DNA of 26,779 bases from Verrucomicrobiales bacterium (GTDB lineage: Bacteria > Verrucomicrobiota > Verrucomicrobiia > Limisphaerales > SXQI01). The notes under the pieces were generated by a model. That model was not told the DNA's origin and searched no databases. It saw only the letters and a program-made list of their open reading frames with translations. The stretch is taken from the NCBI GenBank assembly GCA_028293365.1, contig JAQGOX010000518.1, positions 1 to 26,779 of the forward strand, read 5' to 3'. Made by a program: the position numbers and the translations under genes. This document shows, one piece after another, positions 1,430 through 25,250 of this stretch (the first letter of the stretch is position 1; every line of letters begins with the position of its first letter).

Positions 1430-2515
1430 CTAAAAAGTTCCCGCTGCGATGATTGGCTTCGGAACGAAGGGAAGACAGATCTGCAGGAAGGACTGCGGTT
1501 TCTCAATTTCGAGACTGAGCCTGGCCATCAATGCTGAGACTCCTGCGTCGATGATTTGGTCGCACTTCGCGAGATCTTGTTGGCGGAACCGGACATTTTC
1601 GCGCACGAGAGATTCGAGAGTGTCGATATTGTAGAGGTAAACGCCCTCCAGAGAGTGGACGCCAGCATCAATGTTGCGGGGCACAGCAATGTCGATCAGG
1701 AATAACAGCCGGTTCTTGCGCCTGCGCATCAGGTTTTCGACGTCCACGCGATGCAACAATGTATTGGGGCAGCCTGCTGCCGCCACAACAATGTCCACGT
1801 CGGTCATTGTTTGCAGGCATTCTTCGAATCGCACCGCCTCGCCACCAAATTCCCTGGCCAATTCAACGGCCCGTTCGAAGGAGCGATTAGAGACGAGGAT
1901 TGACCGTGCACCATTTTTCGCCAAATGGCGAATACAGGTTTCACCCATTCGGCCAGCGCCAATGATCATGACCTTCTGCTGCGAAAGGTCATCATGGAAA
2001 ATCCTTTCCGCCAACTCGACTGCGACACTGCCAACGGAGGTGGCGCCACGGCCGATGCTGGTTTGAGTGCGGGTTTCCTTCACGGTTTGAAACGCCTTTT
2101 GAAAGACCCGGTTCAGCATTCGGCCGGTCAGGTGAGCCGCCCGAGCCGCTTCATACGCGGTCTTCACTTGCCCGGTAATCTCGGTCTCGCCTACCACCAT
2201 CGAATCAAGGCCGCTGGCGACGCGAAAGAGATGGCGCACCGCTTCAACGTTTTCAATGACGTAACCATGCAGGCGAAGGTCATGCTCACTGCACCCCACT
2301 GCCTTCGAGAGCGAATCCAACGAGCGCGCTTCGTACCGCGTCGCGCCGTATATTTCCACCCGGTTGCACGTGGAGAGCAAAACCACTTCGTCGAGTTCGC
2401 CCTCCACTTGCAAACGGCGAGTTTGCTCGAGGAGCCGTGGGGGTGTGACCGCAAATTGTTCACGCACCTCGACGGGCGCCGTTCGATAGTTCACACCGGC
2501 AACGAAAAGCTTCAT
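1430..2515 (-). CDS. hemA: Glutamyl-tRNA reductase (short form, 361 aa)
   Basis: N-terminal GVNYRTAPVEVRE, catalytic LSTCNRVEIY, SMVVGETEITGQVK, NADPH-binding IIGAGRMG and DIAVPRNID. Start overlaps the upstream stop (ATGA). Confidence 0.95.
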   Translation of the reverse strand: MKLFVAGVNYRTAPVEVREQFAVTPPRLLEQTRRLQVEGELDEVVLLSTCNRVEIYGATRYEARSLDSLSKAVGCSEHDLRLHGYVIENVEAVRHLFRVASGLDSMVVGETEITGQVKTAYEAARAAHLTGRMLNRVFQKAFQTVKETRTQTSIGRGATSVGSVAVELAERIFHDDLSQQKVMIIGAGRMGETCIRHLAKNGARSILVSNRSFERAVELAREFGGEAVRFEECLQTMTDVDIVVAAAGCPNTLLHRVDVENLMRRRKNRLLFLIDIAVPRNIDAGVHSLEGVYLYNIDTLESLVRENVRFRQQDLAKCDQIIDAGVSALMARLSLEIEKPQSFLQICLPFVPKPIIAAGTF

Positions 2516-12471: not shown

Positions 12472-13751
12472 TTCGGTCCTTCCATAGATTTGTCAGCTTT
12501 CACCAATGGCACCTGAACGCGGACTGACATGCCGCCGTTCTTAGGACTCTTAATTTCCAGTTCTCCGCCGATTCGTTGCGCTCTTTCTCGCATCGTCGCG
12601 AGACCGAAACTGCGCTTGGGTTCCGTGGCAGTGGTCGCCGTTAGACCAACTCCGTTGTCTCGGATCGTAAGTGCAACCTCGCGGGCTGTGAATGCCAGGT
12701 TGATCCAGACTGACTTAGCTTGCGCGTGTTTGCTGACGTTCGTGAGCGCTTCCTGAGCAATGCGGAATAATTCGTTCTGCGACTCCAGTGAAAGTATTTG
12801 GGCTTCCCCTCGCTGCCTGAAATGGCATGAAAGCGTCCCGCCCTCAGCCAGGCGTTTCGCCGCTTGTTTCAGCGCTTCCGAAATGGTGCTTCCCGCCAAT
12901 GCCTTGGGCCGGAGCGCCTGCACCGAACGGCGTGCCTCGTCCAGTCCAGAGCGTGCCAGTTTCTGAATTTGCGACAGCGCCTTGGCGCTGCGCCGCTTGC
13001 TGACCGCCAAAGAAGTGCCAAGCGCCTCCGAATGCAAGACGATGCCAGCAAACGCCTGGGCCAGTGTATCGTGAATTTCCCGTGCCAAACGGTTCCGTTC
13101 CTCGGTCACCGCCAGTTGCTCGGCTCGACGAGTCAGTCGGTTGAGCTGCAAGGCCAAGGTCGCATGATTTACCAACGCCTGGGCCAGCTCAAGGTCATCG
13201 GCTGTAAACTGGGTTGGCGATTGAAAATGCAATTCGAGGAATCCCGCGTATTGCTCTCCAAGGACCAGCGGCACGATCATGAGCGTTTTGATTCCAAGCG
13301 CTTTGAGCGATTCGCCAAGTCGCCGATTGAGTAAAGACTCTTGGGCCGGAAGCTGCAAGATTTGAGGCGCTCGGGCAGCATCCTCTATTTGCCAGAGGAC
13401 CTGCAACTCTTCCAGCGGACGGACACTCTTGCTGCCAATTCCTGGGCTGACGGATTCGCTTGGATGTCTAGTCGAGTGTAGCACTAAAGCACCGATGGCG
13501 TCGTCAAACAGCCAAAGCTCCCAGGATTTCGCATGGAATTGATTGTTCAACTCCGCGATCACATCGCCAAGGAAGCGGTTCACGTCCAACTCTTCGACAA
13601 ACGCGTTTAAGGCCAGCCGGATCGCTTCTCTCTGGCTTTGTGCCCGTTCTTCAGCACGCTTGCGTTCGGTGATATCCATTACAGTGCCGACCAATTCGAT
13701 AAACTTTCCGTCCTTTTGGACGCCGTAACCAACCACGTTCAAGTGCTTCAC
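12468..13751 (-). CDS. Sensor histidine kinase, C-terminal part (end of PAS, GAF, HisKA_3, HATPase)
   Basis: EERNRLAREIHDTLAQ (phospho-His), FRIAQEALTNVSKHA, IRDNGVG and FGLATMRERA. Begins at GTG in the middle of a PAS fold. Confidence 0.9.
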   Translation of the reverse strand: MKHLNVVGYGVQKDGKFIELVGTVMDITERKRAEERAQSQREAIRLALNAFVEELDVNRFLGDVIAELNNQFHAKSWELWLFDDAIGALVLHSTRHPSESVSPGIGSKSVRPLEELQVLWQIEDAARAPQILQLPAQESLLNRRLGESLKALGIKTLMIVPLVLGEQYAGFLELHFQSPTQFTADDLELAQALVNHATLALQLNRLTRRAEQLAVTEERNRLAREIHDTLAQAFAGIVLHSEALGTSLAVSKRRSAKALSQIQKLARSGLDEARRSVQALRPKALAGSTISEALKQAAKRLAEGGTLSCHFRQRGEAQILSLESQNELFRIAQEALTNVSKHAQAKSVWINLAFTAREVALTIRDNGVGLTATTATEPKRSFGLATMRERAQRIGGELEIKSPKNGGMSVRVQVPLVKADKSMEGPK

Positions 13752-18771: not shown

Positions 18772-18999
18772 TCAGCCTTGGTATTTGAAAGACAACTGCA
18801 CACGCGCGCGGAATGCCTTCACTTTGCCGTTCTCGACCGTCACGTCGGTTTTAATGACTTCGGCAACGCGCAGGTCGCGCAGCGATCGAGCCGCGGTCTC
18901 TACCGCATTCTTCGCGGCTTCTTCCCACGATTTCGTGCTGGTCCCGATTATTTCCGTTACTCTATATACCGAGTCTGTCCCATTAGTTTGTTTTGCCAT
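18772..18999 (-). CDS. Dodecin (flavin/CoA-binding)
   Basis: 75 aa, SVYRVTEIIGTSTKSWEEAAKNAVETAARSLRDLRVAEV...FRARVQLSFKY. A-rich leader with AAGGA RBS. Confidence 0.93.
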   Translation of the reverse strand: MAKQTNGTDSVYRVTEIIGTSTKSWEEAAKNAVETAARSLRDLRVAEVIKTDVTVENGKVKAFRARVQLSFKYQG

Positions 19000-19125: not shown

Positions 19126-21534
19126 TCAGTGGCTCAGGGCCACGGGCATTTCCTTCCTGTCTTTAGTGACCGCCGATGGCTCGGGTTTGGTTTCATTTGC
19201 CGAGGCATGGTGGTTTATGATTAGCCGGGAACCACGCTGGCCTGTCAGGAACGTCCAGACCCACTGGACGAAAACGCTTACCCGAAGATTGGCCGTTGCG
19301 AGAAACTGGATGTGGATCGCTGCCCAGCCGAGCCAGGCGAACAATCCGCTTAAATGAATCTTGCCGCTCTGCATGATCGCAAAGCCCTTGCCAACCACTG
19401 CCATGTTGCCTTTATCGAAATAACGGAATGGCGGCGGCGCCGCTTTCCCCGACAGGCGTTTCGCAAGCAGTCTTCCGGCGTACCGCCCGCCCTGAATCGC
19501 CACCTGGGCCACACCCGGCAGCGGCTTCCCGTCCTGCTGAAGCGACGCCGTATCGCCGACCACAAAAATCTCCGGATGTCCAGGCACAGTGAGATCGGGC
19601 TGCACTTTGACGCGCCCCGCGCGATCGGTTTCCACTCCCAGCCATTTGCCCGCCGGGGATGGAGCCACTCCAGCCGTCCAGATGACTGTCCTGCTCGCGA
19701 TCCTCTCGCCGCCGACGATCACACCCTCGTCGTCAATTTTATCAACGCCGTGGCCCAGGCGCACCTCAACACCCAAGTCCTCCAGGTGTTTCCTGGCTGC
19801 TTCCGAAAGGCCTTCGGCGAATGTGCCCAGCACGCGATTCGCCATGTCCAGGAGAATGATTCGAGCCGAGAGCGGGTCAATCCGTCTGAATTCCGAGTAC
19901 AGCGTGGTCCGCACCATGACGGCCAGCGCGGCGGCCATTTCAACGCCGGTCGGCCCTGCGCCCACCAGAACGAAGGTGAGGAGGTCCCGGTGCCGGCCGG
20001 GGTCCTCTTCAGCCTCCGCTTGTTCGAAGGCTTGGAGGAGGCGATTTCGAATGGCCACGGCATCCGCCAGGCTCTTCAGGCCGGGAGCGAAGCGTTCGAA
20101 TTCATCGTGCCCGAAATAACTATGGCGCTGGCCAGTCGCGAGTACGAGATAGTCGTATGGGATCTGCACTTCCGAACGATCCGCCGAGTTGGCGAGAACA
20201 TAACGCTCCTCTTTGTTGACGCCGGTTACCTCTCCAAGGATTACGGTCGTGTTGCTTTGCTTGCCCAGGATGCCCCTAATCGGAGCACTGATTTGGCCCG
20301 GCGCCAGAACCGATGTCGCCACCTGGTAAAGCAATGGTTGAAAAACGTGGTGATTGGAGCGGTCAATCAAAACCACTTCGGCTGGAGTCAAACGGAGCGC
20401 TTTGGCTGCCGCCAGGCCGCCGAAGCCCCCACCGACGATAACGATACGGGCCACATGATCATTCATAGTTTCTTCTCCTCTCAGTTCGTATAACGGTTGA
20501 TCGTCCAGCCTGAGGCTGACTTTTCCGGCATAACGCCGGGAAATAAAATTGGAATAGGCGAAGGACAATGCGAGGGCGATTGGGAACCAAACGGAAGCCA
20601 GCACCAAAGCGTTGTGGCTGGAAGCGACGGCGTATGCGGTCAGTGAATTCTCCGGAGCAAGGGTTGAATGCAGCATCACCGGGAAGAGAGCTGCGGCTCC
20701 GGTTGCCAGCACGCCCACGATGAGGCCATTCGAACCAACGAACGCGCGCATTTCGCTGCGAGCAGCCAGGCCGGAAACAAGCGTGACGGCTGAGGCGACG
20801 ATGACAAGCACTCCAAGCCAGCAAATGGACTTGTGCACAGCCTCGTGGAACAAGTCTGGACGCACAATCCATGACTCTACCGAGAGCGCGAAGAAGAGCG
20901 GCACGACCGCGACCCAGAGACGCTTCGCGTACCTGGCGGCGCGGTCATGCACGGGGCCTTCTGTCTTCAGCGTGAGGTAAGTCGCGCCGTGTGCTGCCAG
21001 CAGGACGGTTACAAAAATGGCGGCAGATATCGTGTACCAATCGAAAAGCCCCACATTGCCGCGTGTCCTAAAATCCGTGAAGAATGCCATCGAGAAATTC
21101 CCGTTGCCGTCGAGTGGAACGCCCCGTTCGAGATTGCCTGCTGCAACTCCGAAAAGGATCGCCAGCAGGAAATTGGCGAACACGAAAACGAAATCCCAAA
21201 ATCCCTGCCAGAGTCGGTCATTGATGTGCCCCGCAACTTCGAGCGCGACGCCACGCAGAATCAGCCCCCACAGAATCAGCATCAGCGCCAGGTAATATCC
21301 GGCGAACGCCGGGCCCATGAGCTTGGGAAACACCGCGAGCAATGCGCCGCCGAAACCGACCAGCCACACCTCGTGCCATGACCAAAGCGGGCCAATCGCT
21401 GCGACGACCTGGCGCCGCTCCTGTGGTGTTTTGGCGACGAACCAATGGAGCATCCCCGCCCCAAAATTGCGTCCGTCCAGTGCCACGTATGCAATGAGCA
21501 TCAAGCTGACAACGCCGAACCATATCCCAATCAT
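19126..21534 (-). CDS. cydB-ndh: Fusion of cytochrome bd ubiquinol oxidase subunit II (aa 1 to ~349) with type II NADH:quinone oxidoreductase (aa 357-802)
   Basis: The N-terminal part is a multi-TM CydB (LDG..FGAG, IGPLW..HEVWL, LRGVALE). The C-terminal part has GGGFGG, HHVFQPLLYQVAT, VGAGPTGVE, WTAGV, AQVAIQ and FRYFDKG. There is no stop between them. The NDH-2 part has its own GAGGAG and ATG at 20466. Confidence 0.9.
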   Translation of the reverse strand: MIGIWFGVVSLMLIAYVALDGRNFGAGMLHWFVAKTPQERRQVVAAIGPLWSWHEVWLVGFGGALLAVFPKLMGPAFAGYYLALMLILWGLILRGVALEVAGHINDRLWQGFWDFVFVFANFLLAILFGVAAGNLERGVPLDGNGNFSMAFFTDFRTRGNVGLFDWYTISAAIFVTVLLAAHGATYLTLKTEGPVHDRAARYAKRLWVAVVPLFFALSVESWIVRPDLFHEAVHKSICWLGVLVIVASAVTLVSGLAARSEMRAFVGSNGLIVGVLATGAAALFPVMLHSTLAPENSLTAYAVASSHNALVLASVWFPIALALSFAYSNFISRRYAGKVSLRLDDQPLYELRGEETMNDHVARIVIVGGGFGGLAAAKALRLTPAEVVLIDRSNHHVFQPLLYQVATSVLAPGQISAPIRGILGKQSNTTVILGEVTGVNKEERYVLANSADRSEVQIPYDYLVLATGQRHSYFGHDEFERFAPGLKSLADAVAIRNRLLQAFEQAEAEEDPGRHRDLLTFVLVGAGPTGVEMAAALAVMVRTTLYSEFRRIDPLSARIILLDMANRVLGTFAEGLSEAARKHLEDLGVEVRLGHGVDKIDDEGVIVGGERIASRTVIWTAGVAPSPAGKWLGVETDRAGRVKVQPDLTVPGHPEIFVVGDTASLQQDGKPLPGVAQVAIQGGRYAGRLLAKRLSGKAAPPPFRYFDKGNMAVVGKGFAIMQSGKIHLSGLFAWLGWAAIHIQFLATANLRVSVFVQWVWTFLTGQRGSRLIINHHASANETKPEPSAVTKDRKEMPVALSH

Positions 21535-23015
21535 AGCGACGTCTCCTTTAAACTTCCGGCAGCCACACCGTTGTTGGAACGGGAGCCGTTGCCGTTGCTC
21601 GCGACCGATGTAGTCGCCGACGTGAGGAGGCGGTCCGATGCCGCGTCCGAATCAGCGTCCTTACGTCGGCGGCTACGTGTGGCTTCCTTGTCCGGACCGT
21701 GGCCGATCTCCCGGCCGACTAGAAAGAGGAAAAGCAGACCGAGCACAAAATAGAGACCAGTAAAACCAATCAGGGTGAAAATCGTGTTGCCGTTGCTCAC
21801 CACCTGACTATAGCCGTCAGCCGTGTGAAAAAGGCCGTGGATGAGCCATGGCTGCCGTCCCAGTTCGGCGGTCATCCAGCCCAGGGTGTTGGCGATATAG
21901 GGAAACGGTAACGCCAGCATCAGGACCCAGAGGAGCAACCTGCTGGACTCCAGACGGCCGAGCAAATTCTGCAAAGTTGCGAGGCCCATGAGGAAAATGA
22001 AAATCGTCCCCAGCGTGATCATGATATGAAACGAGTAGTACAACAGCTCAATGTTGTCGGGCCATGTTTCCTTCGGATAATCCTCCAGGCCGTGCACGTA
22101 ACTCCCAAAATGGCCGTAGGCAAGGAAACTAAGTGCGCCCGGAACTTCGATAGGATTGTCCAGTCGCCGCGCTGCGACATTGGGTTGGCCGATAACCGCT
22201 ACCCCCGCTTTGGTGCCGCCCTCAAATTTGCCCTCCATGGCGGCGAGCGTGATGGGCTGATGACGGCCTACCATCTTGGCCTGCTGGTCGCCGCTCGGAA
22301 ACGCAACCAGGAGCGACGCAACCAACCCGGCAAATGTCCCGCCACCAAGATAGAGTCGAGCTTGCGTCCGGTGCAGCCCGCGCAAGGCGTAAAAGGCGCC
22401 CACTGCAGCCACCACGAACGAGCCGGTCACCAGCGCCGCCATTTGATTATGGGCGAACTGCACCCAGGCCCATGCATTCAATAAGTAGGCGCTTAGACTG
22501 GCGATGCCAAGCGAGCCGTCGGCTTCGATTCGATAGCCCACCGGATGCTGCATGAATGAATTGGTGACCAGAATGAAGTAGCCGGAAAGCCAACTCCCGA
22601 CTGCGACCGCCAGCGCCGCCAGGAAGTGATATCGCGGCCCGAGCCGTTTCTCGCCCCAGATCAGTGCGCCGACGAAAGCGCTCTCGAGAAAGAACGCGAA
22701 CAACCCTTCCATCGCCAGGGTCTGTCCGATCACACTCCCGGCATACTTGGAGAAACCCGCCCAGTTTGTTCCAAACTGAAACTCCATCGGAATGCCGGTG
22801 ACGACACCCAGGGCGAAATTCAGTCCGAAAATCTTCGCCCAGAACCGAGCGGCTTGATTGTAGCTTTCATCTCCCGTCCTGAGGGCGCGCCATTTCCAGT
22901 AAACCAAAAACCAGGCCAGCCCCATGGTAAGCTGCGGAAAGAGGTAGTGATAGGTTATCGTGAAGCCAAACTGCAACCGGCTCCAAAACGCAGGATTGGA
23001 TAGATTTGAGTTCAT
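21531..23015 (-). CDS. cydA: Cytochrome bd ubiquinol oxidase subunit I (short Q-loop)
   Basis: RLQF...H23 (heme ligand), [36 protein letters not shown] and AELGRQPW. Carries a low-complexity C-terminal tail. Confidence 0.95.
21610..21676. repeat. REP-like palindrome (GTAGCCGCCGACGTGAGGAGGC type) in frame within the cydA 3' end
   Basis: Arms at 21610-21631 and 21655-21676 match 19/22 as an inverted repeat. Encodes [23 protein letters not shown]. Confidence 0.85.
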
Positions 23016-24439
23016 TGTTCCAAAACCCCGCAGCGTGATTGGGAACCTGGAGAGATGGGCAGCAACCCATCGATCGCGGCAAAAGATGTCTCAAAATCCA
23101 GTTCCAATCGGTAGCGCGCCAGGTCCGCCACGCTAATCATCAGCAGACCGTGCTTCTTACAGAATCGGATCAGGTCGGGAACGCGTGCCATCGTCCCATC
23201 GTCGTTGAGGATCTCACAGATTACGCCGACGGGATAAAATCCCGCGAGACTGGCGAGATCAACAGCGGCTTCCGTTTGGCCGCGCCGCTCCAGAACGCCG
23301 CCCTCGCGAGAGCGCAGCGGAAAGACATGACCTGGCCGGGCAAAGTCTTCCGGGCGACTGTTTGTATCAGCGAGGGCCCAAATGGTCTGAGCCCGATCGT
23401 GCGCTGAAATGCCAGTCGTCACATCGGGACCTTTCACATCAGTCGAAATCGTGAACGCCGTGCCGCCTAACGCGGTGTTATCCGGCACCATCGAGCCAAG
23501 CGCCAATTCGTCGAGGCGCTCACCGGCCATGGCCACGCAGATCAATCCTCGTCCATGCATCGCCATGAAATTGATGGCCTCTGGCGTGATCATTTCCGCC
23601 GCCATCGTCAGGTCGCCTTCGTTCTCGCGATCTTCATCGTCAACCACGACGATCATGCGACCCGCCTTAAAGTCGCGAATAGCCTCTTCGATACTTGCAA
23701 ACTGGAACGGATCATGATTTTCGTGACCGCCGGCTTGAGGAGACTCCGATTTCGAAATTTCAAATTTCAAATGAGAGATTTTGGATGGGGCCTCCTCGCG
23801 TCGGCTGCTACTCGATACAAGGGTTAGGGTGTGCCCCATTTTTTCCTTCTTGGTCCGCAAGTAATCCAGGGAGTGTTCGGTAGGCGTGATTTCACAGGAA
23901 ACTTGTTCGACAACGTCAATGCCGGCATCGAGCAAGGCGCGAGTCTTGTTGGGATTATTCGATAAAAGACGAACTCGCGAGACGCCAAGTTGCTGAAGAA
24001 TCGCGGCTGGCAGGCCGAAATCCCGATAATCGGCCCTGAAACCCAGCGCATGATTTGCTTCGACAGTATCAAGGCCGGCGTCCTGTAGCTCGTAAGCGAG
24101 TAGCTTGTCCAGTAAGCCAATGCCGCGACCTTCCTGATATTCGTAGATCAGCAGTCCGCGCCCTGCGGCAGAAATGGCTTGCATAGCGATCTCCAACTGC
24201 TCTCCGCAGTCACAGCGCAAGGACCCGAATATTTCGCCGGTGACGCACTGCGAATGAATTCGCAGCAACGGCGCCTCCTCGGTCACATCGCCCAGAACGA
24301 GCGCCAGCGCGGTTTCAACCCGGCGGTCGCCATTCGAGTTTTCGCGCTCGAACCCGATGGCTCGAAATAAACCCCATTTGGTCGGCATTCGGGTATTGGC
24401 AACTCCTCGCACCGTTCCGTCTTGCGTTCTTGTTTTCAT
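23012..24439 (-). CDS. ribA-ribB: Fusion of GTP cyclohydrolase II (N-terminal) with 3,4-dihydroxy-2-butanone-4-phosphate synthase (C-terminal)
   Basis: RibA motifs [38 protein letters not shown] and KMGH. RibB motifs [29 protein letters not shown] and [16 protein letters not shown] before ATG 24439. Confidence 0.93.
23723..23811. repeat. Degenerate copy of the same REP-like palindrome, forming the RibA-RibB linker
   Basis: Arms at 23723-23747 and 23787-23811 match 17/25 as an inverted repeat. The right arm (revcomp GTAGCAGCCGACGCGAGGAGGC) resembles the cydA copy. The loop contains tandem ATTTC(G/A)A units. Confidence 0.75.
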
Positions 24440-24464
24440 ATTCGTCCTTCGAGCAAGTGCCCGG

Positions 24465-25250
24465 CTAGGCAACCGCCACTGGTTCCTTCATTCTGGAGAA
24501 ATTCGGCGGGCGCTTCTCGAGGAACGCCGCGAACGCTTCCTTGGCTTCCGCGGAGCGCACGTGGACGGAGAATTCCTCGTTCTCGCGCTTTACCGCCTGC
24601 TCAAGTTGCTCGCGCGTTGACTGCTTCATCAGTCGCTTGCAGGCCTGGAGCGCGTGTGGCGCTTTCGCTGCCAGCTTCTGAGCCGTATCGGTCGCGGTCG
24701 CGAGCAAGTTCTGATCCGGCACAACCTGTGTCACCAATCCAAGCTCCGCGGCCCGCCTGGCGTCGAAAAAGTGGCCCGTCAGAATCAACTCAGCCGCACG
24801 GAGGTATCCGATCCGTGCCGGAATCGTGCAGCTCGATCCGAACTCCGGCACCAGGGCGAGATTGACGAACGGTATTTGGAATTTTGCGCTCTCACCCGCG
24901 TACACGAAGTCACAGTGCATTAACATCGTGGTTCCTCCTCCGATTGCGGCGCCATGGACCGCGGTGACGATTGGTTTGTCGAAATCAATCAGCGCCTTGA
25001 TTAAGAGAGCTTGTGGACTTTCACCTGCCCCGGGAGGGTGCTTTACGAAATCTCCTATGTCATTCCCTGCGCAAAACGAATCTCCCGCGCCGTGCCAGAG
25101 TACGACGCGAATCTGATCGTCCTTGGCAGCCGCGTTGAATGCATCGGCCAAAACGATGTACATCGCCGACGTCATCGCGTTTTTCACTGCCGGCCGATTC
25201 AATTGGATCCTCAGGATGTTTCCGGAACGTTCGGTAACAATGTCAGTCAT
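24465..25250 (-). CDS. Crotonase-superfamily protein, enoyl-CoA isomerase-like
   Basis: [34 protein letters not shown] and FLEKRPPNF. Confidence 0.9.

Follow-up and report, generated by a model that had tools for sequence, protein, structure and literature searches.

A cydB::ndh gene fusion joining a cytochrome bd oxidase subunit to a type II NADH dehydrogenase in a contig assigned to Verrucomicrobiales

Background

The closest described relatives of the element reported here are the canonical two-subunit cytochrome bd oxidases, represented by those of Escherichia coli (bd-I, PDB 6rko; bd-II, 7ose), Mycobacterium smegmatis (7d5i) and Mycobacterium tuberculosis (7nkz), and the bacterial NADH dehydrogenases of type II (NDH-2), represented by an NADH:ubiquinone reductase (non-electrogenic) (PDB 9mqy) and the Caldalkalibacillus thermarum enzyme (4nwz). 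In a 26,779-nt stretch of DNA assigned to a Verrucomicrobiales bacterium (assembly GCA_028293365.1, contig JAQGOX010000518.1; hereafter the window), the two are joined: a single gene, cydB::ndh, encodes a complete nine-helix CydB, a cytoplasmic tail and linker of ~29 residues, and a complete NDH-2, and its product may plausibly form a tethered, non-pumping NADH-to-O2 branch. The locus resembles canonical bd operons in its cydA-cydB translational coupling, in the heme-ligand positions of CydA and in the nine helices of CydB, but differs in that CydB runs on through the tail and linker into a 446-aa flavoenzyme, and in the short Q-loop of CydA. The NDH-2 half likewise shares its GxGxxG motifs and AQxAxQ, and possibly its predicted C-terminal membrane helices, with known NDH-2 enzymes; these are free peripheral proteins, whereas that of the window has a covalent bond from its N-terminus to an integral subunit of the oxidase.

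Streptococcus agalactiae reportedly relies on a two-enzyme chain of separate NDH-2 and cytochrome bd, with NDH-2 as the sole entry point. That chain combines the same two activities as a minimal NADH-to-O2 route through quinone, whereas the window carries both on one polypeptide, in a genome that also encodes NuoD, heme-copper oxidases and a second NDH-2, so that the fusion is neither the sole dehydrogenase nor the sole oxidase. In caa3-type oxidases, cytochrome c is fused to subunit II. Mycobacteria have an obligate III2IV2 supercomplex, which is also cited in PMC12994193. Both arrangements hold the donor to the terminal oxidase and remove a diffusion step, as is proposed here for the fusion; in both, however, the link replaces a soluble carrier by direct electron transfer, whereas the lipid-soluble quinone serving the fusion would still shuttle between opposite membrane faces. 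Fusions of NDH-2 to DoxX, FTR1 or Na/Ca-exchanger domains, described below, also have an N-terminal integral-membrane partner, but not one that is a terminal oxidase subunit.

Neither CydB-NDH-2 nor DoxX-NDH-2 fusions were described in any paper found by full-text literature searches, which included a phylogenomics preprint on the bd superfamily and had subscription journals outside their coverage. A PDB search with the CydB of the window retrieved plain CydB chains only, and no bd oxidase with a dehydrogenase domain. Databases list the fused proteins under automatic names.

Results and Discussion

The fused reading frame and its two domains

The fusion is read on the minus strand as one uninterrupted frame of 802 codons and a stop (Table 1). 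An earlier sequence-only reading of the window had described a single open reading frame (ORF) comprising CydB, the linker ELRGEET and NDH-2, and both translation and Pfam searches agreed with this, Cyt_bd_oxida_II matching residues 4-328 (2.4e-67) and Pyr_redox_2 residues 363-683 (2.2e-47). The CydB half scored 227.9 bits against PF02322 (cut-off 35.6) and 157.4 bits against TIGR00203 (cydB; cut-off 117.3). At the junction the minus strand reads CCG TTA TAC GAA CTG AGA GGA GAA GAA ACT ATG AAT, with GAA at 20487-20485 and ATG at 20466-20464, which is exactly the arrangement of GAA after a Tyr codon, GAGGAG box and ATG that had been reported. The stop of cydA and the start of cydB::ndh overlap as ATGA at 21531-21534, the same direct order of cydA and fusion was found in L094, L095, L176 and L177, and wherever the DNA of fused clusters was seen, the fusion lay directly downstream of cydA.

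Table 1. Features of the cydB::ndh locus and its neighbours (positions in the window)
Feature	Position	Strand	Basis
cydA, encoding cytochrome bd subunit I (494 aa, with a short Q-loop)	21531..23015	-	Pfam Cyt_bd_oxida_I 1.4e-142, full profile
cydB::ndh fusion ORF, 802 aa plus stop	19126..21534	-	ORF, Pfam, junction contigs
CydB domain, residues 1-327, nine transmembrane helices	20554..21534	-	PF02322, TIGR00203, PDB matches, hydropathy, AlphaFold2
Transmembrane helix 9 (TM9) of CydB, residues 309-327	20554-20610	-	Hydropathy
Predicted cytoplasmic CydB tail and linker, residues 328-356 (SNFISRRYAGKVSLRLDDQPLY-ELRGEET)	20467..20553	-	Split relatives, AlphaFold2, basic residues
Translated former cydB-ndh spacer, final seven codons of the linker	20467-20487	-	Split relatives stop after homologous Tyr
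Internal Shine-Dalgarno-like GAGGAG (AGGAG at -14..-12 from internal ATG)	20475..20480	-	Spacing as at window starts
Internal ATG (Met357), start codon in stand-alone orthologs	20464..20466	-	Invariance 26/26; free orthologs
NDH-2 domain, residues 357-802	19129..20466	-	PF07992 2.2e-47; PDB matches; motifs
ribA-ribB bifunctional gene, directly upstream of cydA, end overlapping cydA start	23012..24472	-	Pfam GTP_cyclohydro2 25-191, DHBP_synthase 262-454
Gene for the flavin-storage protein dodecin, 126 nt downstream of fusion; then panB, panD	18772..18999	-	Pfam Dodecin 1.8e-24

The hydropathy profile of the CydB half contained nine peaks. In the even (cytoplasmic) loops Lys and Arg residues numbered 4, 1, 5 and 2, with RR..K in addition, against 0, 3, 2 and 0 in the odd loops, and a basic stretch, SRRYAGK, immediately follows TM9, which fits a positive-inside topology with the N-terminus out and the C-terminus in. 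This half aligned end to end with the solved chains 7d5i_B (5.5e-34) and 7nkz_B, and over its whole length with 6rko_B; the match to 9r2g_D was weak (E 3.7e-4). In published bd structures CydB has an external N-terminus and nine helices, and its C-terminus, and with it the fusion junction, is therefore predicted to be cytoplasmic, which is the side where NDH-2 works. A model built with AlphaFold2 (AF2) from an alignment of 31 fused proteins had both domains folded (mean predicted local distance difference test, pLDDT, 73.6), with TM9 as a helix at residues 307-334. Peaks, charges, structural alignments and modelled TM9 together place the junction on the cytoplasmic rather than the periplasmic side, a point on which the sequence-only reading had made its proposal depend. 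Residues 342-359 had pLDDT values below 50, as in a disordered linker, and the two domains are therefore probably joined by a flexible stretch of about 27-29 residues. A CydB C-terminus that tolerates so large a cytoplasmic passenger would be useful for tagging and for cryo-EM fiducials.

The partner subunit CydA matched 7ose_A (8e-77) and 6rko_A (9e-70), and the alignment contained the equivalents of His19, Glu99, His186, Met393 and GRQPW. Its Q-loop, at about residues 245-262 (roughly 22230-22283, minus strand), could be aligned to the QPVKLAAMEG segment of E. coli AppC; the Lys of that segment, commonly listed as part of the quinol site, is Thr in the window, and the next Glu is kept.

The NDH-2 half matched 9mqy_A over domain residues 8-426 (1.4e-118) and 4nwz_A (2.4e-41). 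It contains GGGFGG (368), GAGPTG (525), VGDT (659) and AQVAIQ (676). Across the 31 fused sequences both GxGxxG motifs, for FAD and NADH, were invariant, as were Q677, V678, A679 and Q681 of the quinone-site AQxAxQ, with A676 nearly so. Amphipathic C-terminal helices of moderate hydrophobicity are predicted within residues 731-764 (731-742 and 748-764 in the AF2 model); NDH2_C (PF22366) scored 20.7 bits here, under its cut-off of 27.7, and the alignment to 9mqy spans the same region. Both catalytic halves of the fusion are intact and constrained.

The fusion in independent contigs and relatives

Support for the junction was drawn from assembled contigs rather than raw reads. A 1491-nt contig (depth 9.8) in Logan's separate assembly of the best-matching run, X1, possibly the very sample from which the window came, showed 0 differences over 20200-20657. 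Another soil/wetland study (X5) supplied a contig of 730 nt and ~96% identity that spans the junction without a stop or indel, and several shorter contigs from a third such study (X3) crossed it with the frame open. The variants in X3 and X5 were 20480 C>T (Arg351Lys), 20484 G>T (Leu350Met) and 20488 G>A (synonymous, Tyr), and at 20485-20487, where a stop in the reads had been named as the outcome that would undo the fusion, these independent contigs carried none. Beyond the immediate locus, about 29 metagenome protein clusters from JGI, ENA, NCBI and Logan, 74-89% identical to the window protein, contained both Pfam domains, some carrying both COG names in IMG naming. The two-domain architecture, for which the sequence-only reading had proposed a search, is accordingly found in other sequences, including the further fusion types described below. 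One copy, HWV99898.1 in L176, is 91% identical, has the same gene order on a 106-kb contig, and is annotated merely as cytochrome d ubiquinol oxidase subunit II. Relative to this copy, the ratio of nonsynonymous to synonymous substitution rates (dN/dS) was 0.24 for CydB, 0.11 for NDH-2 and 0.19 overall, and purifying selection has therefore acted on each half while fused.

It might be suspected that two separate genes were joined by a sequencing or assembly error, through loss of a stop or a shift of frame, given that the source metagenome-assembled genome (MAG) is fragmented (978 contigs, 79% complete), that contigs rather than raw reads cover the window, and that one distant protein does resemble a frameshift product without TM9. 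Against such an error stand the contig that is identical across the junction, the open frame in the X5 and X3 contigs, the fused clusters from four sources and the syntenic copy in L176; we regard it as effectively refuted and its probability as negligible. We therefore treat cydB::ndh as a genuine, selectively maintained gene fusion, and put the probability of the whole explanation developed here, comprising its origin, product, mechanism and second product, at about 0.6.

The distant protein, P0032 (820 aa), was not counted as a fusion; its CydB is 70% identical to that of the window as far as residue 296, and TM9 is absent. Its residues ~295-395 form a Pro/Arg/Ser-rich tail before NDH-2, which looks like frameshifted read-through, the result either of pseudogene formation or of a sequencing error.

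Origin of the junction

Of the metagenome loci in which ndh directly follows cydB, nine were fused (L001, L094, L096-L099, L101, L108 and L176) and four were split. In the split locus L102 and the independent contigs L112 and L116, cydB ends in ...DNQGFY-TGA, straight after the homologous Tyr, and is followed by a 14-nt spacer containing a GGA or GGAGG box and then by the ndh ATG in another frame; in split L114, a TAG lies a few codons before that Tyr position. Fused genes read TAC GAA CTG A(A/G)A GGA GAA GAA ACT ATG. The stop after Tyr and the spacer with a ribosome-binding site (RBS) in the split relatives therefore identify the linker ELRGEET as the former intergenic spacer in translated form, its ribosome-binding site included.

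Comparison of 'TACTGAAC' with 'TACGAAC' suggests that the T of TGA was lost and that the length of the spacer downstream changed as well. The loss of a stop codon, as first proposed, is thus supported by L102, L112 and L116, but the simple TAA-to-GAA substitution proposed with it is not, since the stop of the split genes is TGA and their ndh lies in a different frame. The ancestral arrangement would have been an ndh directly downstream of cydB, with a gap of about 14 nt; loss of the cydB TGA after the conserved Tyr and a change in spacer length would then have led to the spacer, with the ndh RBS, being read as ELRGEET.

Six loci (L027, L031, L038, L078, L079 and L088), whose MAGs mostly bear the label Acidobacteriota, carry a cydB with 65-73% identity to that of the window at a distance of 1-5 kb from the orthologous ndh, non-adjacent to it; the two genes were therefore neighbours before becoming contiguous and fused.

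A retained internal start

The AGGAG of the linker lies 12-14 nt before the ATG at 20466, a spacing shared by the GGAG boxes that precede cydB::ndh itself, the CoA-transferase gene and orf373. GGAG or AAGGA was kept in every fused DNA locus and in the relic of L100. Met357 was invariant in 26 of the 26 window-type fused proteins, with the adjoining linker columns 35-73% conserved. The nearest stand-alone NDH-2 orthologs (445-446 aa, up to 91% identical) begin at the equivalent of Met357, in a neighbourhood of ribAB...dodecin-panB as in the window, minus cydAB. In L100 (3028-3159), an unrelated ORF of 83 aa ends ahead of about 130 nt of non-coding sequence that correspond to the 3' end of cydB (TM9, tail and linker); next come GGAGGAGAAGGAGAAACT-ATG and a stand-alone, intact ndh of 446 aa. 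On this evidence the L100 lineage descends from a fused ancestor that suffered deletion of cydA and most of cydB and now appears to use the internal start.

These observations lend indirect support to the sequence-only reading's suggestion that fused and free NDH-2 could both be made. Dual products from a single mRNA are likely, the internal RBS and Met357 probably allowing free NDH-2 to arise beside the fused protein.

Phylogeny and recurrence of CydB-NDH-2 fusions

The CydB tree grouped all fused genes with the split-adjacent ones in one clade (97% support), the separate, non-adjacent cydB genes falling outside it. Within this clade 19 of the 22 sampled cydB genes directly preceding ndh were fused, and the three split genes were scattered near its base. 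The NDH-2 trees, built with FastTree (184 rows) and IQ-TREE (76 rows), placed the NDH-2 of the window in a clade with 99% and 98% support in which fused, split and cydB-less members were mixed, and the state of the fusion has therefore changed several times.

Fusions with more distant CydB partners were also found. In P0086 and P0101, identity to the window is 73% for NDH-2 but only 26% for CydB, and the junction is short, unrelated and free of Met; that of P0066 has a CydB of 42% and an NDH-2 of 57% identity, separated by a linker of ~45 residues; and that of P0124 has a CydB of about 31% and an NDH-2 of 52% identity. A Chloroflexota MAG encodes a fused copy 74% identical to P0124, and the ESM Atlas contains a 63-member cluster, all members of which have both domains and which are mostly Actinomycetota where the phylum is known. 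When the P0101/P0086 group was constrained as sister to the window clade on the NDH-2 tree, the approximately unbiased (AU) test gave p 0.73, the constrained tree being even better, and the NDH-2 tree alone therefore gives no proof of separate origins. Independence rests on the different CydB partners (26% identity) and the different junctions; with CydB partners only 26-42% identical, comparison of the sequences argues that the CydB-NDH-2 fusion has arisen more than once.

The loci L095:767-3551 and L177:7900-10743, which represent the P0066 and P0086 types, each lie close to a cupredoxin gene and to one for a RoxA-like multiheme cytochrome c.

Other N-terminal partners occur in the same broad NDH-2 group. 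Among ten scanned representatives of ~680-840 aa, six carried an N-terminal DoxX domain (P0130, P0132, P0135, P0141, P0144 and P0195), one an FTR1 iron permease (P0208) and one a Na/Ca exchanger (Na_Ca_ex; P0165), with a complete NDH-2 including NDH2_C behind each. About ten more representatives of ~700-740 aa appear to share this layout.

A tethered NADH-to-O2 branch and its alternatives

The fusion protein would sit in the membrane by the nine helices of CydB and carry, on a flexible cytoplasmic linker, an NDH-2 with predicted amphipathic membrane-docking helices of its own. Together with CydA it would form a cytochrome bd oxidase to which an NADH:quinone reductase is attached in a 1:1 ratio. 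Electrons would pass from NADH to FAD and, at the cytoplasmic face, on to a membrane quinone; the resulting quinol would be oxidised at the Q-loop site of CydA in the same complex, and O2 converted to water. Plausibly, the result would be a short NADH-to-O2 branch, non-pumping and cycling quinone locally, in which energy would still be conserved by the vectorial chemistry of bd. The genome, 79% complete, holds a single cydA, NuoD, three to four matches to COX1 (heme-copper subunit I) and a second NDH-2 of 45% identity, and the fusion is therefore best placed as an auxiliary branch, which would operate beside complex I and the heme-copper oxidases.

A stronger version would make CydA and CydB-NDH-2 a self-contained NADH oxidase with a retained quinone that cycles without equilibrating with the bulk pool, the dual-start mRNA setting the ratio of tethered to free enzyme. 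Solved bd oxidases bind structural quinones in a lipid-exposed groove of CydB, and the retained quinone may sit there. We consider this version unlikely; if true, it would represent a natural single-complex respiratory chain.

Several points weigh against a tethered branch with local quinone cycling. The quinol site of bd is periplasmic and the quinone site of NDH-2 cytoplasmic, so that quinone must cross the bilayer and, on the predicted topology, there is no closed channel and at most a shorter diffusion path. The relative orientation of the two domains in the AF2 model is uninterpretable (predicted template modelling score, pTM, 0.49). The RNA runs share only 0.04-0.11 of sampled words. Neither the 13 remaining genomes of the GTDB family nor ~400 genomes sampled from the class yielded a further match spanning the junction, the NDH-2 proteins of these genomes being only 43-59% identical, and among the best 80 ndh loci of GTDB species genomes 0 were fused, several having cydB a few kb away. 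The N-terminal partner may, moreover, act mainly as an anchor, given the DoxX, FTR1 and Na/Ca-exchanger fusions. Lastly, the scattered split and unfused members, the retained internal start and the reversion in L100 show that the state is easily toggled, as a nearly neutral fusion would look.

The main rival to the tethered branch is a nearly neutral read-through, in which the loss of a stop between packed genes was tolerated owing to the flexible linker and cytoplasmic junction, while NDH-2 function would come mainly from free protein made at the internal start and tethering would bring no kinetic benefit. Besides the kept RBS and Met357, the intermixing of states in one clade and the deletion in L100 that left ndh intact, this explanation is favoured by the joining of NDH-2 to several unrelated upstream membrane proteins and by the size of the target for re-splitting, which is only about 24 nt, so that persistence by itself is weak evidence of selection. 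It accounts less well for the dominance of the fused state among cydB genes directly preceding ndh, for its persistence to about 74% identity, for its renewed origin with CydB partners only 26-42% identical, and for the P0086/P0101 types, which without an internal Met are obligate fusions. We consider a nearly neutral fusion possible, yet doubtful.

A device for anchoring or stoichiometry would attribute the fusion to recruitment of NDH-2 to the membrane, co-assembly, 1:1 dosage or stabilisation of a fast-evolving CydB, and not to quinone proximity. NDH-2 is otherwise bound only peripherally, through its C-terminal helices, and the variety of N-terminal membrane partners in its group would be consistent with such a role. 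The NDH-2 of the fusion, however, appears to keep its own membrane-docking helices, so an anchor is probably unneeded, and the repeated choice of CydB, which lies on the same electron path, from different bd subfamilies points to functional coupling; we hold this explanation to be quite improbable.

Whether quinone is 'channelled' or drawn from a free pool is a long-standing debate, usually tested on fragile, detergent-sensitive supercomplexes. The fusion is not a new enzyme, but rather a natural isogenic fused/split system for this question, in that a covalent dehydrogenase-oxidase pair and the split alleles of close relatives, which differ by a stop codon, offer a ready comparison of whether tethering two respiratory enzymes speeds electron flow. 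If tethering matters, a tethered branch would explain a fast, low-cost NADH sink and O2 scavenger of soil bacteria under fluctuating oxygen; if it is irrelevant, the locus documents coupled genes that toggle between fused and split states while retaining an internal start.

Genomic context and host

The fusion lies within a same-strand string of genes encoding a CoA-transferase, an enoyl-CoA hydratase, ribA-ribB, cydA, cydB::ndh, dodecin, panB, panD and an acyl-CoA ligase. A scan of the window for promoters and terminators gave no signal above shuffled expectation; ribA-ribB and cydA are probably in one operon. The ribA-ribB neighbourhood upstream is shared with L176, and the dodecin-panB-panD order with L176, L003 and L004. 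Flavin genes flank the flavoenzyme on both sides: upstream lies the ribA-ribB fusion, whose domain order is reversed, GTP cyclohydrolase II coming first, and downstream lies dodecin. L176 has an extra GTP cyclohydrolase II gene behind dodecin (12776-13555). This arrangement may reflect a flavin supply co-expressed with the FAD enzyme.

The hemA gene of the window (1430-2515) was closest, at 79%, to those of MAGs from Verrucomicrobiia. In the syntenic contig L176 most shared genes are 82-95% identical and ribAB 71%; its MAG, however, is labelled Candidatus Acidoferrum (Acidobacteriota), so that one bin or the other is probably mistaken. MAGs with close ndh orthologs bear such varied labels as Verrucomicrobiota, Acidobacteriota, Gemmatimonadota and others, which points to binning errors, frequent transfer, or both.

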